Source: Vampirovibrio sp.
Lineage (GTDB): Bacteria; Cyanobacteriota; Vampirovibrionia; Vampirovibrionales; JAJTHC01
Length of the DNA stretch: 64,000 bases
Reading direction: 5' to 3'
Assembly (NCBI GenBank): GCA_050916035.1
Contig: CP050876.1
Span: 1,120,635-1,184,634 of the forward strand
A program made the position numbers and the translations under genes. This document shows positions 2,945 to 53,537 of the stretch, one piece after another (the stretch's first letter is position 1; each line of letters starts with the position of its first letter). The notes under the pieces are model-generated. The model was given only the letters and a program-made list of their open reading frames with translations. It had not been told where the DNA came from and did not search any database.

Positions 2945-3853
2945 TTAACTTAGAAAGTTAAAAATACTTTTGGGTAAAATACGCCCCATCACACCCAAAC
3001 TGGCTTCATTGATTTGTTCTTGGAAACGTAAATTGGTAATCAATTGAGGCATATCCACGTCTTGTAATTGACTATAGAATTGGGAGGCCACATCCTGCTT
3101 AGACTGTGTTCGTTCTTGGGTTAAATTCAGTTGATTTAAAGTCGACCCGATATTGGCTTGCTGGTTCACCAAATTGTCGATATTCGTTTTAAGTAAATCC
3201 AATTGCGCGCGTGTGGTCGTCGTATCTCCCGCATCCAAGGCAGTTTTAAGATCAATCAACACCTTAAAGGCCCCTGAGGTCGTATCCCCTAAAAGCGTAT
3301 CGCCCGTCACATTAATGGTAATCGTACTTTGCTTGGCAATTTCAATAGTACGTTGAAACGGCTGGCTTTGAGGCGTCCCCGCATAGGTGACGACATCCCC
3401 CGTGCGGCTATAGGCTTGCGTCCCCGTTTTCGAGCCTGAAAAGAGGTAAATCCCACTTTGTTGACTATTGCCCAATTGCACCAGTTGATCCACCAAGGCG
3501 TTCACTTCTTTGGCAATAGATTTCATGCCCGCAGCCCCTGTGGTGACGTTAGACCCTTGCGTGGCGAGTTCAGACGCTCGCTGAAGCACACTAAGCATCT
3601 GCGTCATGGCGGTGTCCGTGGTAGAAAGTTCCGACACGCCTGTAGCAATATTTTTAAGATACTGATCGTCTTCATTCATACTGCGGGTGACGTCCATCAA
3701 TTGAATGAGCCCTAAGGGGTCATCACTCGGGCGCAGGATGTTTTTGCCGGTGGCGGCTTTTTCCTGTAATTGATTTAAGCGCACCTGGGACTGCTGAAAC
3801 CACTGCGTGCTTTGGGTGCCTTGCATGCCAGTGGCAATACGTCCAATACTCAT
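2945..3853 (-). CDS. flgL: flagellar hook-associated protein 3 (FlgL) / flagellin-family protein
   Basis: The N-terminus MSIGRIATGMQ..QLQEKAATGKNILRPSDDP matches the FlgL/flagellin TGKR..PSDDP signature. YLFSGSKT matches YIFAGYKT of FlgL, and the C-terminus is a flagellin-like helix. Start chosen at the internal Met (3853). Confidence 0.7.
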   Translation of the reverse strand: MSIGRIATGMQGTQSTQWFQQSQVRLNQLQEKAATGKNILRPSDDPLGLIQLMDVTRSMNEDDQYLKNIATGVSELSTTDTAMTQMLSVLQRASELATQGSNVTTGAAGMKSIAKEVNALVDQLVQLGNSQQSGIYLFSGSKTGTQAYSRTGDVVTYAGTPQSQPFQRTIEIAKQSTITINVTGDTLLGDTTSGAFKVLIDLKTALDAGDTTTTRAQLDLLKTNIDNLVNQQANIGSTLNQLNLTQERTQSKQDVASQFYSQLQDVDMPQLITNLRFQEQINEASLGVMGRILPKSIFNFLS

Positions 3854-5182
3854 GGGGGGCCTCTTTCTCTTCAATCGGGGGGAAGACTCTCCGTATAAGC
3901 ATGGCAAAGCGCAGGGGTTTATTCATCCACACAAGGGCGTATTTTTTAAAAGGCTCTACAATCGCTCCGTTTAGGAAGCCGCGTGGGTGAGCGTCGGATC
4001 TGGCGTCACGGAAGACCCCTTGTTTTGAATACCAACTTTAAAGACGGCGAATTTAAAAATTCAGCGTCTAATTTTATTTTTAATCGCCAGTCCCATTTGG
4101 ATGAATAAAAATGTTTGTATTATATGTTGTACTAAAGATGAGATTGCATAAATAATTGACGGCAAAGAATATGAGGGTAAAATACTGGATACAGTATTTA
4201 TAGATATATTTACAGGTATTATAAAGCTATTTTTAAGAGATAATTCAATGAGCATGATTAGATAGTTTACAAGAGTATATTTTGATAATTTATTGTATTC
4301 AAAAATAAAAAAATTGATCAGCATAAATAAAATAATACCTCCTAAAAAACAAAACAACGGTCGTTTAAAAGATAGTCCATAACTAGAAGTTATTCTATAT
4401 AGATGATGCCAAACTGTTTGATGTGTGGATTGCATTTGTTGAAAATAGAAATCGTTCGAAACTTGAGCCTGTCCCAACTCACTTGTAATTTTTTTTAGAT
4501 AGCTGTAAACTTCTGCTTTTGTGTCTTTGTCAGTTAGTTCTAAAGCTTTTAAAGTTAAACTGTTCAATGTTCTATAACCGTTTAGTATTGGCCAAGTGCA
4601 ATAAGCTAAATCTAAACCTTGAAACCAATTCCCATTTTTGATAGTTATTGATTTCATCTGAGACGAAGTTACATCTATACTATTCTTAGGCATCACACAA
4701 GACTCGAAAACAATTTGATCTTCTTCTTTGTTTTTTAAAGCCACAATTGTCAAACGTTTTACAGCTTCTGTAGAGATTAAAGATTTAAATAACAATTTAG
4801 GATAGTTCGCTTGTTCAAAATTAAGTATTGTTGAAAAACTTTCTTTTATAAAAATAGATTTAAAACTTACAGGATCAGCAGTATTTTTAAGTCTCATATT
4901 GTCTAACCCTAGCAAGCCTTCAAATATAGAATATTCAAATTTAAGGGGGAGCTCAAAATAAGTTTCATCCAGATCACACCACTGTTTAAAAATAGCCCTG
5001 TAAAAGTTTACTGTACCTAAAAATTCTGATGATTTAAAATAAACATTCCCCTTAAATACAGCATCGGAAAAATCTAAATTTTCAAAAAAAACGCAATTAT
5101 TTAAACTTGTATGGTTAGGTAGTGTCGACATATAAATAATGATATAATAAATCCAAGATCTAGTTGTTTTGAGGGATTTATT

Positions 5183-5539
5183 ATGAACGATTATATTCAA
5201 TACGAGTTGTCTAAAGCCCAATGGAATCAGATAAAAGAGGCTCTACCTGGTCAGTCGCATCATAGAGGACGCACTGCCGAAAACAACCGTCTTTTTGTAG
5301 AAGCGGTATTATGGATGGGGCGAAACGGGGGAAGATGGAGGTCGCTTCCCTATTATTACGGCAAGTGGAGCAGTGTTCACAAGCGCTTCATTCGTTGGGC
5401 GAAACAAGGCATTTGGCAAATGATTTTCAACACCCTTGCCACATCGGCAGATACCGAATGGCTTATGATTGATTCGACGATTATTCGCGCCCACCAGTGT
5501 TCAGCAGGGGCAAAAAAAGTGCCGGAAAACAAGCGTTAG
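5183..5539 (+). CDS. IS5-family transposase orfA (HTH part)
   Basis: 118 aa N-terminal DNA-binding part of a two-ORF IS427-like transposase. The frameshift site gggcaaaaaaagtg lies at about 5505-5518. Confidence 0.75.
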   Translation: MNDYIQYELSKAQWNQIKEALPGQSHHRGRTAENNRLFVEAVLWMGRNGGRWRSLPYYYGKWSSVHKRFIRWAKQGIWQMIFNTLATSADTEWLMIDSTIIRAHQCSAGAKKVPENKR

Positions 5540-5943
5540 GACGATCGTCAGGGGGCTATACGAGCAAGCTTCACGCCGTTTGTGACAGCCACGGCAACCC
5601 CGTTCGCTTTATCGTCACCGCAGGGCAGGTTTCCGACTCAACCCAAGCCATCCCTTTGTTAAAAGGGCTTGAAGCCACGGCGGTTTTGGCGGACAAGGGC
5701 TATGTTTCAGAACAAATATTTGAGGCGATTCACCTCATGGGGGCTGAAGTGGTCATCCCTAATAAAAGCAATGCGGTGGCTCCTCGTCAAGTCGATTACT
5801 TCCTTTACAAGGCTCGCCACTTGGTAGAAAACTTGTTTAAAGACCTTAAAAACTTCAGGCGAATGGCAACCCGTTACGATAAATTAGATGTGGCTTATTT
5901 GTCTTTTGTTCATCTTGCTTCTATTTGTTTATGGCTTAAGTAA
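5497..5943 (+). CDS. IS5-family transposase orfB (DDE catalytic part)
   Basis: 148 aa DDE_Tnp_1-like C-terminal part (ADKGY..). It overlaps orfA in a different frame, consistent with a programmed frameshift. Confidence 0.75.
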   Translation: MFSRGKKSAGKQALGRSSGGYTSKLHAVCDSHGNPVRFIVTAGQVSDSTQAIPLLKGLEATAVLADKGYVSEQIFEAIHLMGAEVVIPNKSNAVAPRQVDYFLYKARHLVENLFKDLKNFRRMATRYDKLDVAYLSFVHLASICLWLK

Positions 5944-6453
5944 ATGTCGACACTACCTAATAAAAGTGGTTTTGTTAAAATTTGCAGACCCTCTAAATTT
6001 AGACCCAATAAAATGTAAATTGTCTGCAATTGAATTTTTAATTTCTAGATTTTTATTGAATTGGCAGAGTATAAAACTTATACCTTCAGTAAAATTCGTA
6101 TTAGATAAATCTACATTCTCCGTAAAAATACTATTTGTGAAATCAAATCCAGTTTTACAACTGTGATGTTTAGGACTAATCCCTAAAATAAGAGGTGTTT
6201 TTGAAATCCATTCTTTAGATTGCATCGACACATTATAGCTATTTAGCTCAAAAATCACATAAGAGAAAGAAAAATCCAACGGTTTCTGTTCATTGTCTTC
6301 AGAGATTTGTTCGAGATGATTCTGTAAGATAAGCTCGAACGTAGCCTTATCAATAATCCTACGTCGAACACCATCTGGGCAGATAATAAATTCAGGTTGG
6401 TATAATTGCATTTTAAAGCTCCCTCGATCAAAAATAAATAAAAATACTCTCCA

Positions 6454-11264: not shown

Positions 11265-11381
11265 GACGTCTGACCTTCATTTTCTTTCGGTTATTGCGAT
11301 GGCCTTTATTAAAAACTGGCTTAAACTAAACCTTTGTTAACAATTACTAATCCCTCATCAAGGAACCCCTGTAGACGGCCA

Positions 11382-12302
11382 TTAAACAGAGGCTTGCAAA
11401 TAGGTTTCTGGGTTTTTCACCTGTCCTGCTTGGACCACTTCAAAATGGAGATGAGGCCCTGTGGCACGACCCGTCTGGCCCACCAAGGCAATCGTTTCGC
11501 CTGCTTCAACATGTTGGCCAAGCGTCACGACGGTTTTAGAGCAGTGAGCGTACTTGGTGATCAGGCCATGACCATGATCCACCATAACCAAGAGACCGTA
11601 ACTGCCTTGGCGTCCGCTAAAAATCACGGTGCCTGAAGCGGATGCCATAATGGGACTTCCTGTAGGAGAAGCCAAGTCTAATCCTTGATGTAAGCGACCC
11701 GCGCGTCTACCAAAGGGAGAACTGGCCTGCATATGAAATAAAGGTTTTTTCAGTATAAAGGGATTGGCTCGTACTGCGTCGACATGCTTGCGGTGACGCG
11801 CTTTAAACCATGAGGAGTCTTGTCGAACAAATTTAGGTAAGGCCGTTTTAATGTTAGGAGCGGATTGAATGCTCGTCGCGTCGGGCGTTAATAAAGGGGT
11901 GTACTGTGCGTTTGAAGCGCGGCTCGCTTCTTTTGAAATGTCAGCACTTGCTTGAGGGGAAGCATTCATCCACTGTTCGCTTTCAATGACCTCTTCTTGA
12001 TAGCTGGTTTCGACAAGATCAGACTGTAGCAACTCATGAATCACTCGTACATTGTCGTGGGCATTCTGTTCCGCCATCATCGGTAGTACGGAATCTGCCA
12101 TGGCTACGTTTAAAGACAATAGGCTTCCAATGGCGAAGTGAGCGATCGGGATCATCCATAGCCACCACCAAGTACGAGGCTTTGCAGAACTTTTTGCTTG
12201 GTTTTTAATCGTGTGGTTTAAAACACTGGGGGCCAAACGGGGCAAAACAGGCAGCGCAACAAAATTCAAAGGTGAGTAAGGCTGTACGATGTGTTCAGAC
12301 AT
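11382..12302 (-). CDS. M23-family metallopeptidase (LytM/NlpD-like) with N-terminal TM segment
   Basis: C-terminal HQGLDLA..GSPIMA..GTVIF..YGLLVMVDHGHGL.TKYAH..GETIALVGQTG.ATGPHLHFEV carries the Peptidase_M23 motifs. Confidence 0.8.
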   Translation of the reverse strand: MSEHIVQPYSPLNFVALPVLPRLAPSVLNHTIKNQAKSSAKPRTWWWLWMIPIAHFAIGSLLSLNVAMADSVLPMMAEQNAHDNVRVIHELLQSDLVETSYQEEVIESEQWMNASPQASADISKEASRASNAQYTPLLTPDATSIQSAPNIKTALPKFVRQDSSWFKARHRKHVDAVRANPFILKKPLFHMQASSPFGRRAGRLHQGLDLASPTGSPIMASASGTVIFSGRQGSYGLLVMVDHGHGLITKYAHCSKTVVTLGQHVEAGETIALVGQTGRATGPHLHFEVVQAGQVKNPETYLQASV

Positions 12303-12511
12303 TTGTTATCCATTTCCCATTTTTAAAAGCACAAAGGATCTAACGTGAACCACTAGTAGTAATAAAACCGAAAGGTCTTTATTTTTTGCCTTAGGGTTAC
12401 AAATTGTTACCTCGGATACCTCGTAGTGTACAAGGTGAACTGTTTTTTGTAAATCAAAAAACGCCCTTACTCAAAAAGGGAAACTCACAAAGAGCTTCCC
12501 TTTTGTAACAT

Positions 12512-12715
12512 TTAATTGATCGAATGCCATGGCAAGAAGTCGATCCAGCGCTGTTGAACCAAGGGTCTTAGCTGTAAATCTTTTTGTTTTTCAGATTCTT
12601 CGAAAATAATCAAAATCGCTTTTAAATCTTGGGACACTTCAGCAGATAATTTATTACAAACAGGTTCGGCAATGTATCCTAGCAACGTCGAAATTTGAGG
12701 CTCAGTTAAAGGCAT
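12512..12715 (-). CDS. small hypothetical protein (67 aa if start at MPLTEP)
   Basis: ORF-track ORF 12512-12823. The internal start at 12715 avoids the polypurine tract. No known domain. Confidence 0.3.
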   Translation of the reverse strand: MPLTEPQISTLLGYIAEPVCNKLSAEVSQDLKAILIIFEESEKQKDLQLRPLVQQRWIDFLPWHSIN

Positions 12716-13201
12716 AGTAGTGATGGACTCTTTTATATTGAAAGGGGGGTGAACATAAGGGGAAAATAAGACACGTGTGTAGCAAAGGAAATCTTGAGAA
12801 TAAAGCACGTGGTTTCTGAACAAGAAAGAAAGGGAGAAAAGGGAAAGAGGGGAGGAGGGAAAGTCATTTCAACGGATTTGTCCTTCAAGGCCAGGGGTCT
12901 TGATGCGAAAAATCCATTATTTTTCTGTACGAGAGGGGACACCAGCACACGCTGAGGTGGGGAACCTAATGCATGTGTGTGGAGTGTGTAAGAAGGAAAT
13001 GTATGTGTGAAGGAAGAAAGGAGGGAGGAAGGAGAAGAGCGGGTTGATTGCTCTGTGCTTTAATAAAGTTAAGTTTCTCTCAATAATTGCTTCTGTGTTA
13101 CCCTTTGTTACAGATGAATCCATCACGCGCTGTATTGAGGCTTTTTGCAGAGGGCACCCGTCCTACTTTCAAGGTGTTAAGGGCGCTGTAGCCCTTTTTG
13201 T

Positions 13202-13486
13202 TTAGACCTTTCCCAAAATACGAAACAAGGCGGTTTGCATTAAATTGAGTTGTTCTTGCATACTATGAAGCTGGCGTTGAACATCCCCTAAATGTTCACT
13301 AATTTCCTGACGCTTGATATAATGTTCTGCCACGTAGGCTTTTAATTCCTGATGTTCCCCAGAAGAGACAAAGACTTTTAAAGACAAGAGCCAAGACAAA
13401 ACACCCACACCGCAAGCCGTCATCCATAATCCAATTTGCCAAGGGGGATGGTCTAAAAGAAGAGAAAGCGATGGATCGGTGGGCAT
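13202..13486 (-). CDS. small hypothetical membrane/coiled-coil protein (94 aa)
   Basis: One predicted TM helix (IGLWMTACGVGVLSWLLSL) followed by a coiled-coil region. No known domain. Confidence 0.35.
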   Translation of the reverse strand: MPTDPSLSLLLDHPPWQIGLWMTACGVGVLSWLLSLKVFVSSGEHQELKAYVAEHYIKRQEISEHLGDVQRQLHSMQEQLNLMQTALFRILGKV

Positions 13487-13675
13487 GTCCAGTATGTCCT
13501 TTGTCGGTTATAGATGAGAGGCTTCCAAAAACCTAGCTGCGTCGTCTTATTAGTATACAAAATTTATCCGTCTAAAAAACAGTGTCTCATTCACACGATT
13601 TTTTAAAAGAGGAGAAGCAAGTCTGATTTTAATATGGCTCCTCACCATAATACGGAAAGGTTTAGCCCTAGATTC

Positions 13676-14002
13676 CTCGCTTTCGTTTTGAGCTGGTGAC
13701 GTCAGAGACCTTTTCGCGGAAAAAGGTCTCCAACACCTCTAAATCCGTTCAAGGAGGAGTGAAAAGAAGGAAATTGTTGCGGCTCTCCTTCTCTTCCCCC
13801 CTCCTTGAAAATCCTCCCCCCTTCTCATCCTTTTCGCTTGCTCCACTTGCTTACGTGGGACGTCCGCAAAACCCCTCAGGGGATTCGCCATGCGCTCACC
13901 CGCTCGGATTTAGTGCGTGGACGTCGGTTAGTGCAAGGGTTTAAACAAGTCACGTCTTAGCAAAAAGCACTATCGTTCCGCCGTTTAATGAGGAAGCCTC
14001 TC
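13676..14002 (+). repeat. dispersed intergenic repeat, copy 1 (palindromic core GAGACCTTTTCGCGGAAAAAGGTCTC)
   Basis: Shares TCGCTTCGTTTTGAGCT..GTCAGAGACCTTTTCGCGGAAAAAGGTCTCCAACACCTCTAAATCCGTTCAAGG..GACGTCCGCAAAA..GAGGAAGCCTCTC with copies at 27108-27376 and 53170-53535. Confidence 0.8.
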
Positions 14003-14023: not shown

Positions 14024-15055
14024 CTAGTGAAACGCCTGTACCATCTCTTGAGCGACCCCAATGGCATGCTGAAAAACGACAGGATCTTCCAATTGATCTA
14101 AATACGACCAAATCCGCTTTCGAGCCAAAGTCCCCAAGCCTACCCCCGCAATCGTGCGATAGGGAGGGAGCCGCCTTAAACGAGCCGTTTCTAAGTTGAT
14201 GCCCCCTGATACCGTGACCTTCCATCGCGTCGCAAAGGAAGCCGGTAGCGTTCGCGTCGCGTCTAAAGCAGGCAGGCTAGATTCTTTCTCTTCACTGGCT
14301 TGCATCGCTTGGCCGTCGATTTGTAACATCACGCCATAGGGCTTAATTTCTGCACAGTGGGCTGCAAAGGCCTTTAAATACAAGTCCACCACTTCTGGGG
14401 GATGTTCTTGAGGGCGAAAACAGAGAGAAATCCATTTATTGTTTAAAGTCATTCCCAATGCCTTGACCAAACGCCCCAAGGCGGAGACGTCCAAGTGATG
14501 CGTATGGAGTTCCACCGCACCCACCATGGGGTGCGACAACACATGGAGCAATTGTTCAGGGAGATACTGAAGGGCTTTAAAGGACAAAGCCTCCGTGGGA
14601 CAGGTGGGCAGACAACGAGAACACCCATAGCAACGGGCGTCATTAATCTGAAATTGCTGACTGGTATCGAAAGACAGTGCTTCTACAGGGCAAGAGGAAA
14701 GACAATCTCCACAGTCCACACAAAGCGAACGCGTCACCTGTACCTTACGAAAATGAGGATCCCCATCCACATCTAAGCTCACCATTAACAAAGGCTTCGA
14801 AATATTTTCGGGTAGTTTTTCATAGGCACGCAAAGCCGCTTCTAAAACAGGGGGTTCACAAGCAATATCAATACAATCGGCCCCAGCGTGGGCGTACACT
14901 TCAACCAAGGCTTCGATTTTGGGAAGGTCTTGAAAACTCGCCCCGCAAATTAATTTAAAATAGGTCTGAGCATCTAGGGCCTGACGAACCCGACGCAACG
15001 CCTCTTCTACAGGGGCTACACGCACTGGGCTAGACGCTGACACGACGACCTTCAC
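14024..15055 (-). CDS. 4Fe-4S dicluster ferredoxin-domain protein
   Basis: Two CxxCxxCxxxCP motifs (CVDCGDCLSSCP and CYGCSRCLPTCP). Otherwise uncharacterised, 343 aa. Confidence 0.55.
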   Translation of the reverse strand: MKVVVSASSPVRVAPVEEALRRVRQALDAQTYFKLICGASFQDLPKIEALVEVYAHAGADCIDIACEPPVLEAALRAYEKLPENISKPLLMVSLDVDGDPHFRKVQVTRSLCVDCGDCLSSCPVEALSFDTSQQFQINDARCYGCSRCLPTCPTEALSFKALQYLPEQLLHVLSHPMVGAVELHTHHLDVSALGRLVKALGMTLNNKWISLCFRPQEHPPEVVDLYLKAFAAHCAEIKPYGVMLQIDGQAMQASEEKESSLPALDATRTLPASFATRWKVTVSGGINLETARLRRLPPYRTIAGVGLGTLARKRIWSYLDQLEDPVVFQHAIGVAQEMVQAFH

Positions 15056-18451: not shown

Positions 18452-19297
18452 TTAGGTAGTGTCGACATATAAATAATGATATAATAAATCCAAGATCTAG
18501 TTGTTTTGAGGGATTTATTATGAACGATTATATTCAATACGAGTTGTCTAAAGCCCAATGGAATCAGATAAAAGAGGCTCTACCTGGTCAGTCGCATCAT
18601 AGAGGACGCACTGCCGAAAACAACCGTCTTTTTGTAGAAGCGGTATTATGGATGGGGCGAAACGGGGGAAGATGGAGGTCGCTTCCCTATTATTACGGCA
18701 AGTGGAGCAGTGTTCACAAGCGCTTCATTCGTTGGGCGAAACAAGGCATTTGGCAAATGATTTTCAACACCCTTGCCACATCGGCAGATACCGAATGGCT
18801 TATGATTGATTCGACGATTATTCGCGCCCACCAGTGTTCAGCAGGGGCAAAAAAAGTGCCGGAAAACAAGCGTTAGGACGATCGTCAGGGGGCTATACGA
18901 GTAAGCTTCACGCCGTTTGTGACAGCCACGGCAACCCCGTTCGCTTTATCGTCACCGCAGGGCAGGTTTCCGACTCAACCCAAGCCATCCCTTTGTTAAA
19001 AGGGCTTGAAGCCACGGCGGTTTTGGCGGACAAGGGCTATGTTTCAGAACAAATATTTGAGGCGATTCACCTCATGGGGGCTGAAGTGGTCATCCCTAAT
19101 AAAAGCAATGCGGTGGCTCCTCGTCAAGTCGATTACTTCCTTTACAAGGCTCGCCACTTGGTAGAAAACTTGTTTAAAGACCTTAAAAACTTCAGGCGAA
19201 TGGCAACCCGTTACGATAAATTAGATGTGGCTTATTTGTCTTTTGTTCATCTTGCTTCTATTTGTTTATGGCTTAAGTAAATGTCGACACTACCTAA
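18452..19297 (+). mobile_element. IS5-family (IS427-like) element, copy 2, 846 bp
   Basis: Same 17-bp IRs as copy 1. orfA is 18520-18876 and orfB is 18834-19280. There is one synonymous difference from copy 1 (agc vs agt). It is inserted just after the hairpin CCCCCTT..AAGGGGG downstream of pdxA. Confidence 0.85.
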
Positions 19298-19393
19298 GCA
19301 ATTTGTCTAAATATAAAACGTTTATATAGGGGAACCGCATTTCATTCCTTTATTTTTTGATATAGAGATCAATTGAGAGAGAGAACCCAAATT

Positions 19394-20753: not shown

Positions 20754-20790
20754 TCCCTTGCCCCCTTTTGGTGGGGCAGGGGATTTTTTA
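20754..20790 (+). terminator. rho-independent terminator candidate
   Basis: GC-rich hairpin CCCTTGCCCCC..GGGGCAGGGG followed by ATTTTTTA, immediately after the stop at 20719. Confidence 0.5.
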
Positions 20791-20876
20791 TCCTAAGGGG
20801 AGGGCTCCCTTCCGCTTGCGTTTATGGTATGCTAAGGGCTATACGTTTATTGAACCTATTTGTGAAGGAGTCCGCC

Positions 20877-22340
20877 ATGAACACCGTTGCCGTTGAATCC
20901 AAATATGAAGTGGTCTTGGGCTTAGAAGTTCATGTGCAACTCAATACCGACTCCAAACTCTTTAGCACGGCGGCCAATGCCTTTGGCGCAGAACCGAATC
21001 AAAATACGGCCGTGGTGTGTCATGCCTTACCGGGGGCTTTGCCCGTTTTAAACGGAAAAGCCGTGGAATCCGCCATTCGCGTGGGGCTGGGCTTGGGTTG
21101 TGAAATCGCGCGCTATACCAAGTTTGACCGCAAGCAGTATTTCTATCCTGACTTACCTAAGGCGTATCAAATTTCTCAGTATGATTTCCCCATTTGCGGG
21201 CCAGGCGAAGTGACTTTGTCTAACGGTCGAGTGGTGCGCATTTTACGCGCGCATTTGGAAGAAGATGCAGGCAAGCTGGTGCATGTGGGCTCTACGGGGC
21301 TGGATGGTTCTACTCATTCCTTGGTGGATTTTAACCGCGCGGGGTCTCCCTTGGTGGAAATCGTGTCTGAACCGGATATGCGCTCCGCCCAAGAAGCCAA
21401 AGAATACATGATGATGATCCGCAATTTAGTCCGCTACTTAGGCGTGTGTGACGGGAACTTAGAAGAAGGTTCCATGCGTTGTGATGCCAACGTCAGCGTC
21501 AGGCCTTGGGGGCAAGCGGAATACGGCACCAAAGCGGAAATTAAAAACATGAATAGTTTTCGTTCCATTGAACGCGCCATTGAAGCGGAAGTGCTTCGCC
21601 AAGTGGCGATTGTGGAAGCGGGTGGCACGGTGATTCAAGAATCTCGCCTGTGGAATGAAGCGAAAGGTGAAACCGTTTCCATGCGTTCTAAGGAAGAGGC
21701 GCACGACTATCGTTACTTCCCCGACCCTGATATTGCACCGCTCCATATTGAAGAATCTTGGATTCAACGCTTGCGTGAAAGTCAACCCGAACTGCCACAG
21801 GAGCGTTATGAACGTTTGGTGAAAGACTTTGATTTGTCCGAGTATGACGCGCATGTGCTGACGGAATTCAAAGACATGGGCGATTTCTTCTTAAGTGCAG
21901 CGGCCTTAAGTACTGAGTACAAACTCATCGCCAATTACTTGCAAGGCGATATTACAGGCGTCTTAAAAAATGAGAAGCTTACCTTAGGGGAAACGGCCTT
22001 AAGCGCAGAAGCCTTGGCTGAATTGGCTACCTTAACCGCTGAAAAAACGGTGAGTTCCGCCACCGCGAAGAAGTTAATTCCTGTTTTGTTGAAAGACGGG
22101 GGCTTGCCCAGCGCATGGATTGAACGCTTAGGCCTGAAACAGCTAGACAATGTAGACGCATTAACCCCGATTATTGCGGATATTTTAGCCCAAAACCCTG
22201 ACAATGTGGCGGCGTACCAAGCAGGGAAGGACAAATTATTTGGCTTTTTTGTGGGACAAGCGATGAAGGCGACCCAAGGACGAGCAAACCCCGAAACCTT
22301 GAACCGCCTCATCAAAGAAGCGCTCGACGCGACTGATTAA
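20877..22340 (+). CDS. gatB: aspartyl/glutamyl-tRNA(Asn/Gln) amidotransferase subunit B
   Basis: YEVVLGLEVHVQL is the canonical GatB N-terminus, and the length and YqeY-like C-terminus fit. A GAAGGAG RBS lies upstream of the ATG at 20877. Confidence 0.85.
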   Translation: MNTVAVESKYEVVLGLEVHVQLNTDSKLFSTAANAFGAEPNQNTAVVCHALPGALPVLNGKAVESAIRVGLGLGCEIARYTKFDRKQYFYPDLPKAYQISQYDFPICGPGEVTLSNGRVVRILRAHLEEDAGKLVHVGSTGLDGSTHSLVDFNRAGSPLVEIVSEPDMRSAQEAKEYMMMIRNLVRYLGVCDGNLEEGSMRCDANVSVRPWGQAEYGTKAEIKNMNSFRSIERAIEAEVLRQVAIVEAGGTVIQESRLWNEAKGETVSMRSKEEAHDYRYFPDPDIAPLHIEESWIQRLRESQPELPQERYERLVKDFDLSEYDAHVLTEFKDMGDFFLSAAALSTEYKLIANYLQGDITGVLKNEKLTLGETALSAEALAELATLTAEKTVSSATAKKLIPVLLKDGGLPSAWIERLGLKQLDNVDALTPIIADILAQNPDNVAAYQAGKDKLFGFFVGQAMKATQGRANPETLNRLIKEALDATD

Positions 22341-22702
22341 ACATATGTTTTAATAACGTGGTTAAGATTTTTTTTCACTTCTTTTCCTATTAATTCGTAA
22401 AATTCATCGATGCTTGCTTGAGGTAATTTGAAGTTATTAAGATTATGCGAGTTTAACATCTCTCGAAGCTCTTGCACTAATTGCCCACGTGTTCTACGAC
22501 TATTAGAAGAAGTCATATTTCTTAATACAAATATTTTTTGGTTAAATGTCTTTACAAATGCTTCTCTTGCCTCTTTTTCAGCGAGTTCAGTTTTTTGATG
22601 ATTTCTGATCAAATCATCCAGCAAGGGTTTGGCAGGAGATCCTTGCTTAGGGTTATGCAATACAGTGTATGTTAATCCCGTATATGGTGGACGAATAGTC
22701 AT
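22337..22702 (-). CDS. hypothetical protein (121 aa), AT-rich
   Basis: ORF convergent with gatB. No known domain. Confidence 0.3.
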   Translation of the reverse strand: MTIRPPYTGLTYTVLHNPKQGSPAKPLLDDLIRNHQKTELAEKEAREAFVKTFNQKIFVLRNMTSSNSRRTRGQLVQELREMLNSHNLNNFKLPQASIDEFYELIGKEVKKNLNHVIKTYV

Positions 22703-25368: not shown

Positions 25369-25653
25369 TTGCTTTGTGTCTTTGACGTAAAGCGTCGTAT
25401 TTATGTTATGCTAAAAAAGTTGAATACTTGTTTGCATGACCTGATTCAAAGTGGGACTCCCCTATTCATGTCGTCTATCTTATCTTTTTTTAAAAAGTTT
25501 ATCGGTCTTGAATCAAAACTTGATATTATACACTGGGTACTAATTTGTATTTCCTTGAGCTTAAGCTTGGGTTATTTTTTTCCTCTTCATTTCCCTTACT
25601 TCAAGGAGATTCTTGATTTTGTGTTAGACCTATTACGTTACTTAAATAGGTAG
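25369..25653 (+). CDS. hypothetical 94-aa ORF, partial duplicate of the tsp 5' region
   Basis: Contains MSSILSF and LLRYLN, which recur at the N-terminus of the next gene. About 30-35 bp of near-identical DNA blocks are shared. Confidence 0.25.
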   Translation: MLCVFDVKRRIYVMLKKLNTCLHDLIQSGTPLFMSSILSFFKKFIGLESKLDIIHWVLICISLSLSLGYFFPLHFPYFKEILDFVLDLLRYLNR

Positions 25654-25686
25654 TAAAGATTGTAGTTAAAATAAAAACTTAATTTT

Positions 25687-27078
25687 GTGTCAGATCTATT
25701 ACGTTACTTAAACCAGAATGAGATTCTCCTATTAATGTCGTCTATCTTATCTTTTTTAGTGAAACATCCTCAAGTTAAACTGGGTCTTACGCTTCTGTTT
25801 TGGGGGCTGGTTCTTCTTTACTTGGCATTAAAGTCTGTGGATTACTTTCCTGCAGAAAGCTCGCGGATTAAATGGCCTGAATTACAAACGCATCCTCAAC
25901 CCCTGCAGACAACGGGTTCGGCTCGTCAAGCGCAAGCCTTATTTGGCGATGTCTTAGAAAAAATTGAAAGCTCTTATGTGGATGAAACCTTGAATCATCA
26001 ACGTTGGTCGACTTGGCGAAAGCGCTATCAGTCCGTCATTCAAAACCCTGAAGATGCCTATGTGGCCATTGACTCGGTGATTGCGAGCTTAAATGACCCC
26101 TATACACGCTTTTTTAAGCCCGATGAGTTTACGGAACAAAACTTAAGTATTTCCTCCAAACTCTACGGCATTGGGGTAGAAATTACCATTACCAATGAAG
26201 CGGTCACCATTATCAATATTCTGCCGAATTCCCCCGCCATGGGTTCTAAATCCTTGGCCTTGGGAGATGTCATTACCCATATTGACGGTAAAACGGTGGC
26301 AGGTTTGTCCTTGTTGGATGTGGCCAAACGCATTCGTGGGCAAAAAGGGACCGCTTTGGTCTTAACTGTGCAAACGCCTGAACATGAGTCTAAAACCGTC
26401 AAAGTCTTACGCGACGAAATCAAAGTGCTTCACGTGCAAGCACAAGGGTTGTCACAGCATCCTGACGTCGGCTATATTAAGCTTCAATCCTTTATGGGCT
26501 TGGGGATTTCTAATGAGTTTCGTCATATTTTAGAAATGCAGAAAAACAAACCCTTTTTGATTATTGACTTACGCAACAACGGCGGTGGGATGCTCAATAA
26601 TGCCGTTGAAATTGCCGACTTTTTTGTGGATGACGAAACCATTGTCACCGTTGATGGTCGAGGCCGCGCTTACGATACCACCTTAAAAGGACAAGAAGGG
26701 ACCCTTTACACAGGAAAAATCGCCTTTTTGGCCAATCAAGGTTCCGCAAGTGCCAGTGAAGTGTTGGCAGGAGCACTACGAGACTTAAACAAAGCCATTA
26801 TTGTGGGGCAAACCACGTATGGGAAAGGGCTTGTTCAGCAAATTATTCCTTTACAAGGCGAAACCGTGGGTTTGAATTTAACCATTGCGCGTTATCTTAC
26901 CCCAAGCGGGTATGACTTAAATCACGTGGGCTTAAAACCCGATGTCTTTGTTTCGGAAACGAAGATTCGTCAAGGCATTCAACAGGGTAAAGATGTGGTC
27001 TTAGAACGTGCTATTGAAACCCTGAAAAGCACCACAACGACCGCCACTGTACCCGTCAAGCAGCCCATACAGCGCTAA
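25687..27078 (+). CDS. ctp: C-terminal processing (tail-specific) protease, S41 family with PDZ domain
   Basis: PDZ (GIGVEI..LPNSPA..GDVI..IDG) and S41 catalytic motifs (IIDLRNNGGG and TYGKGLVQ). Confidence 0.8.
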   Translation: MSDLLRYLNQNEILLLMSSILSFLVKHPQVKLGLTLLFWGLVLLYLALKSVDYFPAESSRIKWPELQTHPQPLQTTGSARQAQALFGDVLEKIESSYVDETLNHQRWSTWRKRYQSVIQNPEDAYVAIDSVIASLNDPYTRFFKPDEFTEQNLSISSKLYGIGVEITITNEAVTIINILPNSPAMGSKSLALGDVITHIDGKTVAGLSLLDVAKRIRGQKGTALVLTVQTPEHESKTVKVLRDEIKVLHVQAQGLSQHPDVGYIKLQSFMGLGISNEFRHILEMQKNKPFLIIDLRNNGGGMLNNAVEIADFFVDDETIVTVDGRGRAYDTTLKGQEGTLYTGKIAFLANQGSASASEVLAGALRDLNKAIIVGQTTYGKGLVQQIIPLQGETVGLNLTIARYLTPSGYDLNHVGLKPDVFVSETKIRQGIQQGKDVVLERAIETLKSTTTTATVPVKQPIQR

Positions 27079-27107
27079 TTTTTTGATTTATAGGCTTGCA
27101 ATAGAGT

Positions 27108-27376
27108 TCTCGCTTCGTTTTGAGCTTGTGCCGTCAGAGACCTTTTCGCGGAAAAAGGTCTCCAACACCTCTAAATCCGTTCAAGGGGGGACGGGGTAGG
27201 ACGCATTGCGTTTCTCCTCCCCTTCGTCCCCCCTTGAAAATCCCCCCTTAATCCCCACCTCCTCGCATCATTTACGGCCACGACGTCCGCAAAATGTCTC
27301 GGAAGCCTCGCATTTAGTGCGTTGACGTCTGCTTTAAAATTAAAAAAACGTCTGCCGTGTGGTGAGGAAGCCTCTC
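27108..27376 (+). repeat. dispersed intergenic repeat, copy 2
   Basis: Same palindromic core and the same start and end blocks as copy 1. It lies between the convergent genes tsp and nanE. Confidence 0.8.
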
Positions 27377-27379
27377 AAT

Positions 27380-28078
27380 TTAATTAAGCCCTGTCTTAAA
27401 ACGTGCCGTAATGAGTTGAGGGCGCGTAATGGCGGAGCCCACCACCACGGCGGTCGCCCCACAAGTAAACGCTTGGCGGATTTGATTTACGTCCCACACA
27501 CGACCTTCTAAGCAAATGGGATGCGAAGGAAAGGCCTGAATCAAACCTTTTAAAAGTTCAAAATCGGGTTCTCCCGCCACCGTAGACGTTAACGCTTCCG
27601 TTTCTTGGGTATAACCACTTAAGGTGGTACTCAGGATATGAACCCCCGCCTCCACGGCATAGCTGGCAGAAGCCAGCGTGTCGATATCCCCCATGAATAA
27701 GACGTGGGGATACTGCGCCTGAACCGTGGCAATGATCTTTTTTAAGACGTCTTCTCGAAAGCGTGGCGTGGCGTCTAAGGCAATAATATCCGCGCCTGCC
27801 TCTGCAAGGGCTAAGGCATCTGAAGCGTGTCGCGTAATATAGACACTCGCCTTAGGATCCGCAGGCAAGGGAACAGACTTATGCAATCCAATAATAGGGA
27901 GCTGAGGATACCCCTGTTTCAGCTGCCGAATCAAGTCCACATGCGCCACGCGTAGCCCTTCTGCTCCCCCTTGAATCACGCTTTCACACAGGGCCATGAG
28001 TATTTCAAGTCTGCCCAAGGGTTCATGGGCTTCGGCTTGGACGGATACCCAAAATCGGGGAAGGGAGGGAAGGGTCAT
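27380..28078 (-). CDS. nanE: N-acetylmannosamine-6-phosphate 2-epimerase
   Basis: GADIIALDAT, TTLSGYT, GPDFELL and AVVVGSAITRP..IT.RF form the NanE family pattern. Confidence 0.7.
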   Translation of the reverse strand: MTLPSLPRFWVSVQAEAHEPLGRLEILMALCESVIQGGAEGLRVAHVDLIRQLKQGYPQLPIIGLHKSVPLPADPKASVYITRHASDALALAEAGADIIALDATPRFREDVLKKIIATVQAQYPHVLFMGDIDTLASASYAVEAGVHILSTTLSGYTQETEALTSTVAGEPDFELLKGLIQAFPSHPICLEGRVWDVNQIRQAFTCGATAVVVGSAITRPQLITARFKTGLN

Positions 28079-48399: not shown

Positions 48400-49374
48400 T
48401 TACACGTCCAAAAGACTGGCTTTTTTATAGGTCGAAATATCTTTTTTTAAGCCACTGCGAGCTTCGTTGTCTTCATCAAAACCTTCACCTAAAATTCCAC
48501 TAGGCAGGACACCATCACTATTGACGCCCTTGCTTTTGGTTGAAATATCAGTGTCTAGGTACTTCACGGGACTACCATCGGCATTTTTATGTTCGCTGGT
48601 GACAATGCTAACATCTAGGTTATATTCCCCTGTCTCACCCGTTCGTACGGTGAGTTTGTTCCCGTCAAAACGGACTTGGGTGCTGTCGCTTAAGGTGACG
48701 ACTTCGCCTGAACCTAAGGGTTTACCATTGACCATCGGGCCTCCATAGGCACTGAAGGTAATACCTACATTGCCAAGGGCAATACCCACTTTGTCGGTGA
48801 CTTCAATACCCCATTGGTCATATTTTTTATGTTCGGCATTCACCGCGATATTGGTGTCCTTTAAGAGTTGGAAAATGCCTTCGCCTTTCACAACAAAGTT
48901 GTCTTGGCGCTGGTTCCCTTTGTCGGAACGATCGGCATCAGCGACGTGAGGATCCCCCCAGTAACTACTATGCTCGTTGGCGGCTACCACAGGTCTAGGT
49001 TTAGGGATGACCACAGGAGGGATTGTCACTGGTGGTGGTGGATCTTTTTTAATAGGGGTATTGTACACGTTGGCATATTGAGGCACGACAGGATTATCTC
49101 CCCAACCGCTTGACCAGCCCCCACCACGAGGGATTTGAACACGAGGATCCACCGCGTAGCGTAAGCGAGGATCCACTTGCGAAGCATGCAAATAAGGGTT
49201 TAGGGTTGTGAATTGCTGTACCGTATTGGTCGTGAAGCCATAACTGGGTCGAGGATCGGTGGGTATCGACGCATAAGGAGGGTAAGGGGTTCTCATGCTA
49301 TTGGTGGCATTGAGATAAGGATTTTGCATATAAGGGGATGTAGGGGAGGTGGTATAGGGATTAAACATAGTCAT
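48400..49374 (-). CDS. membrane protein with low-complexity N-terminus and YWGDPH (VWD-like) domain; paralog B
   Basis: HSSYWGDPHVADADR and C-terminal LPSGILGEGFDEDNEAR are homologous to paralog A. Start at MTMFNPYT (49374). The ORF track extends to 49566. Confidence 0.6.
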   Translation of the reverse strand: MTMFNPYTTSPTSPYMQNPYLNATNSMRTPYPPYASIPTDPRPSYGFTTNTVQQFTTLNPYLHASQVDPRLRYAVDPRVQIPRGGGWSSGWGDNPVVPQYANVYNTPIKKDPPPPVTIPPVVIPKPRPVVAANEHSSYWGDPHVADADRSDKGNQRQDNFVVKGEGIFQLLKDTNIAVNAEHKKYDQWGIEVTDKVGIALGNVGITFSAYGGPMVNGKPLGSGEVVTLSDSTQVRFDGNKLTVRTGETGEYNLDVSIVTSEHKNADGSPVKYLDTDISTKSKGVNSDGVLPSGILGEGFDEDNEARSGLKKDISTYKKASLLDV

Positions 49375-49674
49375 AATTAATGATGTCTTTATGAAGGGTT
49401 TGATTAGGGGAATTCTGTAAAGGGAGAGAGAGGAGGAGAAGGGAGGAAGGGAAATCTGAACATAGGGAAGGGATTCGTATCTTAATAAAGTTTTAAAAAT
49501 ACGAAAAGTGCGCGAATGTTTACACTTTGTAACATTATGTTCATTCTCCCTGATAAGCACTTGCAAATCCCTTATAAATAGGGCATATTATAAAGTGTAA
49601 AGCTTTTCTTTTTTTATCTTTTTTTATCTCTCTTTTTGTAGCAATCAATGTAACCGTTTAGGGAATAAGCTCAT

Positions 49675-50334
49675 ATGACTCAATGTTCTATGGATGTGTA
49701 CCGTCGTGTTAAGGCGGGGTTTGCTCCTGCCTTTCAATTTGTTGTGGACAGCTGGAAACCGTGGATGCTTATTACGCTGCATCGTGTTCGTCAGCACTCT
49801 TCTTTACATCAACAATTATTGGATGTGGAAGAATTGTGGAATGAAGCGTTGCATGGCTTACATCATGCGGTGACTCATTTAAATGAGTCGTTTGAACCGC
49901 CACAATGCCAAAGCTATATTCGCATGACCATTCGTTTTGCGTTATGGCGATATGCAGAACAGCAATTAAAGCATCGTATGGCTTGTCAATCCGATGTTTT
50001 AGAGGTCACCATGAACCGACAATCGCTCTGTGAAAGTATTCATCAATTGGATGCCCTCATTCAAGAAGAAACCCATACCGCTTTAAAAGGAGTGGTACGT
50101 AAATACTGTACGCCTGATGAACAGCGTTACCTTTTTCAACGTTTTGGTATGATTCCAGATCCGAACTCTCCCTTAAGTGCTCAGAATGTCTTGAAAGATG
50201 TTCAGGATTCTATGCAAAGTCTCCGCCGTCTGGCTCATATTTTAGGGGTGAGTTATCAAGCCTTACAACGTAAAGAACGTCGCTTGCTTAAACGTTTACG
50301 ACATTTATTGACCCGACATCATTTAAAAAATTAG
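49675..50334 (+). CDS. RNA polymerase sigma factor, sigma-70 family (regions 2 and 4 only; sigma-28/ECF-like size)
   Basis: Region 4 HTH ILGVSYQALQRKERRLLKRLR. Region-2-like YIRMTIRFALWRY. 219 aa. Confidence 0.5.
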   Translation: MTQCSMDVYRRVKAGFAPAFQFVVDSWKPWMLITLHRVRQHSSLHQQLLDVEELWNEALHGLHHAVTHLNESFEPPQCQSYIRMTIRFALWRYAEQQLKHRMACQSDVLEVTMNRQSLCESIHQLDALIQEETHTALKGVVRKYCTPDEQRYLFQRFGMIPDPNSPLSAQNVLKDVQDSMQSLRRLAHILGVSYQALQRKERRLLKRLRHLLTRHHLKN

Positions 50335-50434
50335 CGAAAATAATGAACCTCCTACACTCCACCAAGCACAGGGGGCGTTAAAGACTTTGACTCCCTACGT
50401 CGAAAGAAGTCTTTATGAGCCTTGAAATTTAAAC

Positions 50435-52234
50435 GTGTGTGTAAAGTGCCTGGAGTATCTTCTGATGACGCTGCTAAATTCTTCTTTTTCTCCTCTCTTA
50501 TCTAATGAAGCGGTGGCCAAACGGCTTGAAGAACATCAAGACTATTTTAAGGTGATACAACCGTATAGTTTGGATTTATATGAAAATTTAGGGCGTTGGC
50601 TTCCTTGTATTCAGCATTATGATGCCTTTACATTGAAGCCTACCCAGCAGCAGGATATTGACGATAAATTAAAGCACTTGATTCGGATGCTTCAAGACCA
50701 TTATGCTTTTACCCCTGTGGAGCTTTCCATGGTGGAAACGGTGGGTACTTGGGGCCTTTCTTTTTTGGAAAAACAAGGCTTCGCAGATGCGGTAGACCAT
50801 AGTCTAAAAGTGGCTTTCACCGCGGTGGCTTTATGTCGCTATTTGGAATTGCCTCGTGAAATATACAGCATGGCGGTTTTGGTCAGCTTACTTCATGACC
50901 CTAAAGATCAAGTGGATGAGGACACACAAATAGCGGTTTTAGTGAGCCATCCTTCTTTGGCTTCTGCCTTGTTGACGTTGTTTCTTAGTCCAGAAGCTTC
51001 CCAAACCATAGGGGTCCCTTGTCTCTTAGAACATTTAGAAGCCATTGCTCAATACTACGACGTTTCTTCAGTTGACCTGGCCGTTTCCGCGGTGAGTGCC
51101 CTGATGGAAAATATAGATTCGGGTTTTGTGGTGGAAGGCGGCTTTGTGAAGTATTTAAATCAAGTACATCATGAAAAATCATGCCAGAAAAATTCCCTAA
51201 TTGTAGAGGCGACTCCTTTTGCGATGGAAGGGGCTTTAGAATTGGCCGAATCCATTCGTATGCAATATCTTAGTCAACTGTTTTGTGTGGAAGGAGACGA
51301 GAGCGCTTCCCCTGATTCTGGTTTTTTGGAGAATACGGATTTAGAAAAAGTGGCGAAAGAAATTCACATTCGCAGTGGATATCCTCATGTGCCTCCTCTT
51401 CCTATCAGTGATGTTTTAATTAGCCACACCCACTTGCAAAAAGAGCATCAAACGTGTCAGCAATTGGGCGCCATACTGGGAGCCGCGGACAACGGACAAC
51501 TGAACGGTTATAAAATTATAGAACATAGTACGGCAGACTATATTACTCGAATTCAGGAGGCTTTTGACGCTCCGTCGTCGTCTTATCTCAATCAGTGGAT
51601 CAGCGTTTGTCACCGTTATCATTTAACATTACCCGCTTGTTTGGATGCCCATCAATTTTCGATGCATTCCCATCCCTCTTTGATGGTCAACGCCTTTGGT
51701 GAATCACTGTGGCGTTCCGTCATTGAAAATTACTTATACCTAAAAAACAATGTCAGCCATATCATTGCCTTGCATTATGTGGTGAGAGAAGGGATTGCCT
51801 TTATCGCTGGCTTACAACGTTATAGCGAAAGCATTGGCTTTGGCAGCCTTTGTTTGTCTTCTCGTTTTGGAGATTTTCTTACGGCGGATTCTTGGCTGGA
51901 CGCGTTAGAAGAAATTGCCTATGACGAAGAATTTTTATGTCTCTTGTACCACGAAATTAATGAATGGTGTGAAGAATCTTTACTACAATGGCCTGACGAA
52001 CTTCCTTTAGACTTAAGTGCTTTTTTACGGATTTATAAGCAGGAAACGGAACGGATTGAAGTGGTTTTACCCTTAATCCCAGAAGGGCGACTTCCCATAG
52101 AGGCTTTAAAAGAAACGGCTTCCTCAGCGCAGTATTTTTCAATTCAACGAAATAATGCTGAAAAACAGCTTGATGATATTTCTACCGTGTCTTCGGGCGA
52201 TCTTATGAATTCATGGAAGGCTTATGTCTTGTAA
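50435..52234 (+). CDS. hypothetical protein (599 aa)
   Basis: Long ORF immediately downstream of the sigma factor gene. No recognisable domains. Confidence 0.4.
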   Translation: MCVKCLEYLLMTLLNSSFSPLLSNEAVAKRLEEHQDYFKVIQPYSLDLYENLGRWLPCIQHYDAFTLKPTQQQDIDDKLKHLIRMLQDHYAFTPVELSMVETVGTWGLSFLEKQGFADAVDHSLKVAFTAVALCRYLELPREIYSMAVLVSLLHDPKDQVDEDTQIAVLVSHPSLASALLTLFLSPEASQTIGVPCLLEHLEAIAQYYDVSSVDLAVSAVSALMENIDSGFVVEGGFVKYLNQVHHEKSCQKNSLIVEATPFAMEGALELAESIRMQYLSQLFCVEGDESASPDSGFLENTDLEKVAKEIHIRSGYPHVPPLPISDVLISHTHLQKEHQTCQQLGAILGAADNGQLNGYKIIEHSTADYITRIQEAFDAPSSSYLNQWISVCHRYHLTLPACLDAHQFSMHSHPSLMVNAFGESLWRSVIENYLYLKNNVSHIIALHYVVREGIAFIAGLQRYSESIGFGSLCLSSRFGDFLTADSWLDALEEIAYDEEFLCLLYHEINEWCEESLLQWPDELPLDLSAFLRIYKQETERIEVVLPLIPEGRLPIEALKETASSAQYFSIQRNNAEKQLDDISTVSSGDLMNSWKAYVL

Positions 52235-53163: not shown

Positions 53164-53169
53164 AGACCC

Positions 53170-53535: not shown

Positions 53536-53537
53536 CT

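Follow-up and report, generated by a model that had tools for sequence, protein, structure and literature searches.

A 64,000-nt stretch of the genome of Vampirovibrio sp. (assembly GCA_050916035.1, contig CP050876.1, positions 1,120,635 to 1,184,634; hereafter 'the window', meaning the whole stretch analysed) contains three true copies of one intergenic repeat, whose family is so far known from only a few Vampirovibrionales genomes. The family is new but falls within a kind of bacterial repeat that is already known; it does not represent a new type of system. Specifically, we favour with moderate confidence the reading that it is a lineage-restricted, non-coding mosaic repeat of the kind represented by REPs (repetitive extragenic palindromic sequences) and bacterial interspersed mosaic elements (BIMEs), by dRS3 and the Neisseria intergenic mosaic elements (NIMEs) and by BOX, and that its copies are probably read through from adjoining genes as structured 3′ untranslated regions (3′-UTRs). 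Conservation of its hairpins shows in changes that are compensatory or tolerate G·U pairs.

Three copies of one repeat

The loci had been picked out in an initial annotation made from the letters alone, and sequence reading and alignment bear out all three positions. The copies have in common an exact block of about 54-56 nt (the core plus CCAACACCTCTAAATCCGTTCAAGG), for which the chance expectation is no match. When the 30-nt core GTCAGAGACCTTTTCGCGGAAAAAGGTCTC is searched for with a tolerance of up to three mismatches, it occurs in the window three times, each time mismatch-free, where 100 shuffles give an expectation of 0.00. The 10-mer GAGACCTTTT, which is one arm of the core palindrome, is found seven times (0.2 expected), each time within an element; the idea that it might be an uptake sequence was rejected on this ground. 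Downstream of the invariant block, a three-way alignment places CCTTGAAAATCC, GACGTCCGCAAAA and ATTTAGTGCGT.GACGTC in all three copies, confirming the C/T-rich spacer and the GACGTC blocks that had been described as shared. A repeat finder pairs 13682-13757 with 27114-27189 (96% identity) and with the inverted 53365-53451 (93% identity). Searches with nhmmer, using each of the three copies and two foreign copies as queries, detect no fourth copy or fragment in the window, in agreement with the original count.

Some details of the initial description have to be adjusted. The palindrome in the core is genuine, but its perfect arms measure 10 bp (GAGACCTTTT/AAAAGGTCTC, around a 6-nt loop) rather than 11 bp. 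The terminal GAGGAAGCCTCTC, thought to be common to all copies, is present in copies 1 and 2 and missing from copy 3, which has a 35-nt deletion relative to its ortholog L007 (loci outside the window are numbered L001 onwards). The elements were found at the right loci with limits that were too narrow, since homology on the left starts further out, at about 13636 and 27092 in copies 1 and 2, and runs to about 53545-53555 in copy 3. The reported duplication of the core in copy 3 is real: a second, diverged head lies 88 bp upstream, at 81-87% identity.

A mosaic of hairpin modules

When all copies are read side by side in the orientation of the initial annotation (here 'forward'), the family resolves into a mosaic of hairpin modules. 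An optional left block exists in two forms, ..GGCTCCTCACCATAATACGGAAAGG.. (copy 1, L001, L013 and L011) and ..GAGAGTCTCTGTTTTTTGGAT.. (L009, L016 and copy 3's inner head). Head units number from one to four or more and form direct repeats with a period of 87-88 bp; in L009, 3.3 units at 98% identity are followed by the end of the contig. Each head unit combines the core palindrome with a small hairpin (GAAAGGCGA/TCGCTTTC); the stem of the palindrome starts with G-C and encloses the loop CGCGGA. Directly 5′ of the palindrome stands a tetranucleotide tag in 32/32 heads (CGTC in 27, TGTC in 5), which is unpaired on the forward strand, and the core is followed by a tail of CAA(C), CAC(C) or CGA(C), so that the unit with tag and tail measures about 34 nt.

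Beyond the head lies T1, a hairpin that is about 60 nt long and has TTCAAGG...CCTTGAA at its base. T1 exists as form A (copy 1) and form B (copy 2), which differ by compensatory changes, and as hybrids of the two (copy 3, L016 and L031). X is an optional 115-bp insert that folds as three hairpins and is present in L003, L017, L018 and L019. T2 is a hairpin closed by GACGTC...GACGTC, with either a short loop (copy 2) or a long loop (copies 1 and 3), and thus carries CGTC at both ends as well. T3 is a variable end that often terminates in ..CCGT.T.GTGAGGAAGCC(TCTC). Internal deletions or truncations occur in L002, L004, L006, L011 and L013. In one divergent relative from a metagenome (L034, Ga0315903, 1050-1110), the T1/T2 tail is kept and the head palindrome is swapped for an untagged hairpin with a 13-bp stem (TTGGGGGTCTTTG-TGCCGC-CAAAGACTCCCCAA), so that a hairpin is conserved in position and not in sequence.

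The features of the three copies, with coordinates in the window, are as follows.

13636-14002, + from head to tail (better-folding strand -): copy 1, the most complete (367 bp), by homology limits and alignment; co-directional setting between an LdpA-like gene (14024-15055, -) and a small open reading frame (ORF; 13202-13486, -)
13636-13655, +: left block of copy 1, GGCTCCTCACCATAATACGG, which imperfectly matches the right end (13981-13998) in inverted orientation
13656-13738, +: head unit of copy 1, with the small hairpin region (TCGCTTTCG, 13677-13685), CGTC (13700-13703), the core palindrome (13705-13730) and the tail CAAC
13748-13809, +: T1 of copy 1, long hairpin of A-type, by alignment and folds
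13859-13925, +: T2 of copy 1, long-loop form with a closing GACGTC at either end, by folds and alignment
13926-14002, +: T3 of copy 1, variable end terminating in CCGTTTAATGAGGAAGCCTCTC, by homology limits
13696-13944, +: mechanically called 82-aa ORF inside copy 1, judged spurious (no Pfam match; frame not conserved)
27092-27376, +: copy 2 (285 bp), by homology limits and alignment
27132-27135 and 27137-27162, +: tag and core in the head of copy 2
27180-27238, +: T1 of copy 2, B-type
27282-27329, +: T2 of copy 2, short-loop form
27330-27376, +: T3 of copy 2
53170-53545, - (better-folding strand +): copy 3 (about 376 bp, inverted), by alignment and folds
53466-53545, -: distal, diverged head of copy 3, with tag (53507-53510) and core (53479-53505)
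53378-53465, -: proximal head of copy 3, with tag (53419-53422) and core (53392-53417)
53313-53374, -: T1 of copy 3, hybrid type
53202-53267, -: T2 of copy 3, long-loop form
53170-53201, -: truncated T3 of copy 3

As a side observation, the copy in L013 (at about 2990-3170) is truncated in the linker between T1 and T2, and closely behind it comes a sequence that resembles a tRNA and has a long variable arm (GGATGAGGTCCGGGTGG...GGTTCGAATCC...).

Folding and strand asymmetry

Whole elements fold far better than shuffled controls, with z-scores on the reverse strand of -3.2, -4.9 and -5.0 for copies 1, 2 and 3, and of -7.4 for L018. Evidence for conserved structure comes from 15 distinct sequences of T1 plus core, compared with 500 shuffles. 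In their consensus structure, 98.5% of the cells are paired and six pairs are altered on both sides, and none of the 500 shuffles matches the observed pairing or covariation; when partners are slid by 1-3 columns, pairing falls to 50-69%.

The two strands are not equivalent in this respect. RNAalifold gives -61.0 kcal/mol for the reverse strand and -48.8 kcal/mol for the forward strand, and the non-Watson-Crick cells comprise 118 G·U vs 4 A·C. The reverse strand folds better because its G·U pairs are A·C mismatches on the other strand; the core stem grows from 10 pairs on the forward strand to about 16 on the reverse strand. The T1-plus-core region is more stable on the reverse strand in all three copies, with RNA and with DNA parameters alike. 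Since G·T pairs are tolerated in single-stranded DNA too, the asymmetry is compatible with RNA and single-stranded DNA and does not distinguish between them. The reverse strand is also purine-rich, with repeated AGGAGG/GGGGGG tracts. In the B-type copy 2, at about 27215-27260 (-), a G-quadruplex-like run (GGGG-N5-GGGGGG-N8-GGGGGG-N5-GGGG) overlaps one arm of T1, and copy 3 has similar tracts.

Coding capacity, promoters and terminators

The suspicion that the 82-aa ORF in copy 1 is spurious is well supported: the ORF has no Pfam match, and its frame runs into a stop in copy 2, after 23 codons, and lacks a start codon in copy 3. Comparison of the window with Rfam 15 at the gathering score yields only RNase P RNA and a tRNA, and nothing for the repeat. 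Copy 1 and L018, when compared with Rfam under permissive settings, yield nothing but sub-threshold hairpin matches resembling microRNA precursors, those of copy 1 being located in T1 (13748-13809).

A scan for sigma-70-type promoters is negative in all three copies. The same is true of terminators in the canonical sense, as no U/T tract follows any module hairpin on either strand of the three copies. The sole terminator-like match, in the distal head of copy 3, is at chance level, as are the terminator-like matches in a 20-kb control stretch of the window. The proposal that the repeat serves as a bidirectional terminator is therefore unsupported as far as a canonical intrinsic terminator is meant, because no hairpin precedes a U tract.

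These results also bear on the possibility that the copies are independently transcribed structured RNAs of 250-400 nt that act in trans, for instance as sponges for a protein or the ribosome through their GGAGG tracts. The strong conserved structure with compensatory changes, the tolerance of G·U pairs on one strand and the repetition of AGGAGG/GGGGGG tracts on the reverse strand would all suit such a family. However, every copy scanned is devoid of both a sigma-70-type promoter and a terminator, there is no Rfam match, and the ends are ragged, with optional modules and internal deletions (L002, L004, L011 and L013). Moreover, a single defined RNA gene would be expected to stay constant, whereas orthologous copies diverge by the replacement of modules (see below). 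An independent RNA family is thus quite unlikely; of the structured small RNA put forward initially, the conserved and strand-asymmetric structure stands, and a promoter, a terminator and an Rfam match are missing.

Distribution

A scan for the core in 185,579 species-representative genomes returns 19 loci, all of them in three metagenome-assembled genomes (MAGs) of Vampirovibrionales: JBIJBR01 (16 contigs), JAJTHC01 (2) and JBKDRU01 (1). JBIJBR01 is a close relative of the genome under study, as L001 aligns with 11347-13793 (94%), L007 with 48414-53434 (92%) and L006 with 20790-22524 (96%). The core pattern has no match in metagenome and viral contig collections, while a pattern for the T2 module finds four additional copies, which come from one metagenome and all lie at contig ends. 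Many contigs terminate within the element (L001, L005, L009, L012, L021-L025 and L033-L037), which fits a high-copy repeat that breaks assemblies. A literature search for repeats in Vampirovibrio/Melainabacteria found nothing relevant.

Another explanation would see the copies as pieces of some known, larger mobile element, for instance prophage attachment sites, the ends of insertion sequences (IS) or integron-like sites. What speaks for it is that, at the site in Lake Mendota relatives that is orthologous to copy 2, the element is abutted or interrupted by foreign insertions. Against this, the flanks of the repeat are ordinary chromosomal genes with no recurring associated protein, BLASTN against 50,697 phage and 72,556 plasmid records gives no match, and viral contigs give none either. 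This explanation is largely refuted and scarcely credible, as the copies are not prophage or IS ends and the family, which might have been restricted to the three loci first noted, reaches well beyond them.

Genomic setting

Twelve copies have both flanks known, and of these six lie between convergent, five between co-directional and one between divergent genes. The flanking genes are ordinary chromosomal ones (LdpA-like, dCTP deaminase-like, S41 peptidase, NanE, DciA, ribonucleotide reductase and PNP-family phosphorylase). Within about 4 kb on either side of each of the 19 loci, no flanking protein recurs (the only clusters are spurious frames that lie in the repeat itself), no gene is bracketed by inverted cores, and no two heads form an inverted pair. 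The convergent settings reported for copies 2 and 3 agree with the ORF layout. Copy 2 occupies the whole spacer between the convergent genes for an S41 peptidase (stop 27076-27078) and NanE (stop 27380-27382), beginning about 14 nt past the former stop and ending 4 nt short of the latter; its right boundary, CCTCTC|AATTTAATTAAGCC, was set by comparison with L020. Copy 3 is flanked by a convergent PNP_UDP_1 gene (ending at 53163) and an 875-aa ORF (53538-56165, -). The TAG stop of this ORF (53538-53540) lies inside a stretch that shares homology with the repeat's left edge (53538-53555, GCCCTAGAG), and its last few codons are possibly also within that homology; the element may have substituted the original terminus of the ORF.

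The tail of the element points towards the 3′ end of a gene at 10/12 loci of the window's own lineage and at 1/5 loci in other lineages. A rule to this effect first appeared to hold in 12/15 cases, which became 11/17 after orthologs were merged and metagenome copies added. It is not relied on here, because only 1/5 loci in other lineages fit.

Ends, insertion sites and mobility

The limits of homology are ragged, lying 20-70 nt before the first core on the left and 206-346 nt after the last core on the right. Terminal inverted repeats (TIRs) were searched for by local alignment of each left flank with the reverse complement of the right flank, and the scan is negative in all copies but L014, where the match is due to an adjacent inverted partial copy that places a tail beside a head. 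No flanking direct repeat or target-site duplication (TSD) is visible at any copy. Orthologs of the genes flanking copy 2 reveal neither an empty site nor a TSD: contigs from the NanE side stop, or carry an IS, at the element boundary, those from the peptidase side carry a rearranged element, and more distant relatives have other synteny at this site and lack the element. In the two Lake Mendota contigs concerned, an InsA-like zinc-ribbon insertion (MQCPKCGS...) begins exactly at the right boundary of the element (L020, 3806-4220, NanE side), and a different insertion follows the start of an X module (L031, 2960-3098, peptidase side). These foreign insertions are reminiscent of IS elements that target REPs.

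[quoted passage not shown] A length of 285-400 bp, the lack of coding capacity, the many copies and the presence of active IS elements in the host genomes would all suit a MITE, and copy 1 has ends (GGCTCCTCACCATAATACGG / CCGTTTAATGAGGAAGCC) that form imperfect inverted repeats, paired with each other in the minimum-free-energy and centroid folds of the reverse strand. This match of 18-20 nt is nevertheless below the threshold of the TIR scan and is a weak lead rather than a rule, and the single positive scan, in L014, has the trivial cause given above. Left and right limits differ among copies by 50 and 140 bp, respectively, no direct duplication flanks them, and the internal mosaicism and tandem heads are atypical of MITEs. 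The only IS in the window, of IS5/IS427 type, has ends (TTAGGTAGTGTCGACAT...) that are unrelated to the repeat family. The MITE-like character suggested initially is thus not upheld (no general TIR, no TSD, ragged ends), and a MITE origin is quite unlikely.

Lack of TIRs and TSDs is, on the other hand, what would be predicted for a REP/REPIN-type element of single-stranded DNA, in which an HUH tyrosine transposase, similar to the REP-associated tyrosine transposases (RAYTs), or another strand-specific nuclease, encoded at some other place in the genome, would recognize the CGTC-tagged hairpin on one strand and insert copies of the element at further sites, and any effects at the RNA level would be incidental. 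The tag in every head, the CGTC at both ends of T2 and the persistence of strand asymmetry with DNA parameters are all in keeping with this, and tagged REPs have been regarded as candidate miniature transposons (Di Nocera, De Gregorio and Rocco 2013, PMC3733652). Yet CGTC REPs themselves have no known dedicated transposase (PMC3733652), and the surroundings of the 19 loci contain neither a gene between inverted cores nor a recurring protein. The heads form direct tandems and not inverted pairs, and the ends are ragged. In addition, copy 3 is oriented oppositely to copies 1 and 2 within a stretch over which the cumulative GC skew climbs steadily, which argues against strict targeting of one replication strand. 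Such an element is accordingly considered unlikely, albeit less so than a MITE or an independent RNA family.

Exchange between copies

At the two orthologous sites that can be compared, the flanks are 92-97% identical and the modules of the element differ. More specifically, copy 2 has a B-type T1 and no X, vs a T1 that is A-type on the left and B-type on the right, the start of an X and a foreign insertion in L031. Copy 3, with its two heads, hybrid T1, long-loop T2 and truncated T3, is to be compared with an ortholog (L007) in which the head is single, T1 is of B-type and carries an apical deletion, T2 has the short loop and T3 is complete. Non-orthologous copies, in turn, can be closely similar, with L014 95% identical to copy 2 and L016 94% identical to copy 3. 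That orthologs differ in their modules while non-orthologs are 94-95% identical indicates, as judged from these alignments, that copies frequently exchange sequence through gene conversion or recombination. Exchange would account for the mosaicism, and not for the colonisation of new loci. On its head side, L007 is flanked by sequence without homology to the window, a sign of rearrangement at the element.

Other repeats in the window

An IS of about 850 bp is present in three copies (5115-5960, 18452-19300 and 63573-64000, the last inverted and cut by the end of the window); the first 300 nt are 100% identical in two of them, the TIRs (TTAGGTAGTGTCGACAT...) measure 25-28 bp, and two overlapping ORFs with DUF4096 and DDE_Tnp_1 assign it to the IS5/IS427 type. 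Between a 306-aa gene and the small ORF adjoining copy 1 lies a stretch of about 900 bp (12300-13200) that has no credible ORF and no Rfam match; it contains long purine-rich tracts (e.g. GAAAGAAAGGGAGAAAAGGGAAAGAGGGGAGGAGGG) and is about 94% conserved in L001. The RNase P RNA gene (60465-60883, -) is flanked on both sides by the arms, 3.1 kb apart, of a 132-nt inverted repeat that is 86% complementary (59127-59258 / 62412-62543). Finally, the spacer just 5′ of the S41 peptidase gene (25432-25757) contains two pairs of direct repeats at 78-80% identity, one of 59 nt and 267 bp apart, the other of 50 nt and 66 bp apart.

Interpretation and relevance

The characterization of the repeat as REP/ERIC-like and non-coding is supported: it is multi-copy, has a CGTC-tagged palindrome and hairpin modules, lies mostly in convergent or co-directional spacers and contains an ORF that is not conserved. 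In the reading favoured here, a mosaic repeat acting at the 3′ ends of genes, the promoterless copies would be read through from adjoining genes, and the transcript, mainly of the reverse strand, would fold into a series of stable stem-loops. By analogy with experimental findings on the REPs of E. coli, these may form a barrier in the 3′-UTR that blocks exonucleases and partially stops read-through. The copies would be kept alike, and at the same time reshuffled, through recombination or gene conversion between loci. New loci might be colonised either rarely and by recombination, or in trans by a strand-specific enzyme acting on the CGTC-tagged hairpin.

Several points weigh against this reading. 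Transcription of the elements, and an effect on neighbouring genes, are inferred. The orientation bias of the tails is not significant overall (11/17), and the module hairpins lack the U/T tract of a terminator. The asymmetry in z-scores is clear in copy 1 only, copies 2 and 3 being about equal on both strands; many of the G·U pairs are common by descent and therefore represent few independent events, as do the A and B forms of T1. No empty site that would speak for mobility was found. The untagged replacement hairpin of L034 has to be counted here as well. Lastly, the palindrome departs from the CGTC REPs to which it is otherwise similar, both in its dimensions (a stem of 10 bp that starts with G-C and a loop of 6 nt) and in the arrangement of the heads, which in Vampirovibrionales form a direct 87-bp tandem and not head-to-head dimers.

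A bolder proposal is that the family is more than REP-like DNA in decay and is the substrate of a strand-specific system that recognizes CGTC-tagged hairpins, or that it consists of structured RNAs whose purine-rich reverse strand binds a cellular partner. We consider this rather improbable. If true, the recent swapping of modules among loci of very close genomes would make the lineage a usable model for the spread of repeats, and a strand-specific system of this sort could be an enzyme that mobilises CGTC REPs.

An undescribed repeat family is added to the Vampirovibrionales, the non-photosynthetic sister group of cyanobacteria, and CGTC-tagged palindromes are extended to this group, in the form of an unusual composite with tandem heads. 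Copies of the element (i) fill the spacers of convergent housekeeping genes and once supply a stop codon, so that they may tune 3′-end formation and mRNA stability, (ii) limit the assembly of MAGs, are useful to know when Vampirovibrionales genomes are annotated or assembled, and are a candidate marker for strain typing and (iii) provide, through the replacement of modules at orthologous sites, a compact example of concerted evolution in dispersed repeats.

Comparison with known repeats

Size, the lack of coding function, the presumed co-transcription with neighbouring genes and large hairpins are features that the family has in common with ERIC/IRU sequences and with MITEs such as Correia/NEMIS and the cyanobacterial Nezha. 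Unlike the present family, in which neither was found, those elements have TIRs and, in the case of MITEs, TSDs as well.

The pneumococcal BOX element (boxA-boxB(n)-boxC) is modular, with a variable number of tandem boxB units between defined A and C ends. The Vampirovibrionales repeat resembles it in being modular, non-coding, rich in stem-loops and dispersed near genes, with a variable number of tandem sub-units. The two differ in that sequence and phylum are unrelated and in that the Vampirovibrionales family has ragged ends and alternative forms of its modules.

Closer parallels exist with the REPs and BIMEs of E. coli, where palindromic units are likewise clustered with conserved linkers in 3′ intergenic regions, have no promoter of their own and vary in location between strains. 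The roles proposed or shown for these elements are those of a 3′-UTR stabiliser and a partial terminator, and for the BIME REP325, in yjdMN, partial termination and mRNA stabilization have both been shown (bioRxiv 10.64898/2026.03.23.713779). There is, however, no sequence similarity, no GTAG tag and no RAYT seen at the 19 loci. Units in BIMEs alternate in orientation, whereas the heads in Vampirovibrionales are direct, and T1, X and T2 have no counterpart in BIMEs.

The CGTC-tagged super-family of REPs, in which the tag is sometimes TGTC or CCTC, consists of units of 20-40 bp with a stem of 8-9 bp that starts with A-T, a loop of 4-5 nt and the tail CCA; the units are mostly found as head-to-head dimers and preferentially between co-directional and convergent ORFs (PMC3733652). 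G·T pairing, together with a unidirectional or convergent location, has been taken as a sign that REPs function at the RNA level (PMC3733652). In Neisseria, the CGTC REPs known as dRS3 are clustered in intergenic mosaic regions, the NIMEs (PMC3733652). The unit of the present family, at about 34 nt with tag and tail, falls inside this size range, and its tails (CAA, CAC or CGA) are close to CCA without being identical to it. In addition to the departures in stem, loop and dimer arrangement noted above, the palindrome of the present family is only one module in a composite of 285-400 bp, and one relative (L034) carries another, untagged hairpin. Since its stem, its loop and the arrangement of its heads do not fit, and the palindrome is one module of several, the family is treated here as REP-like, and its membership of the CGTC super-family is not taken as proven. 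The likeness nevertheless extends over many features, namely an unpaired CGTC or TGTC tag right before a short palindrome, a short tail of C and A, a high copy number, intergenic sites between convergent or co-directional genes, G·T pairs in the stems and the lack of a known dedicated transposase. Finally, the mosaic context is shared with Neisseria, where the dRS3 units of the NIMEs are interleaved with other repeats.

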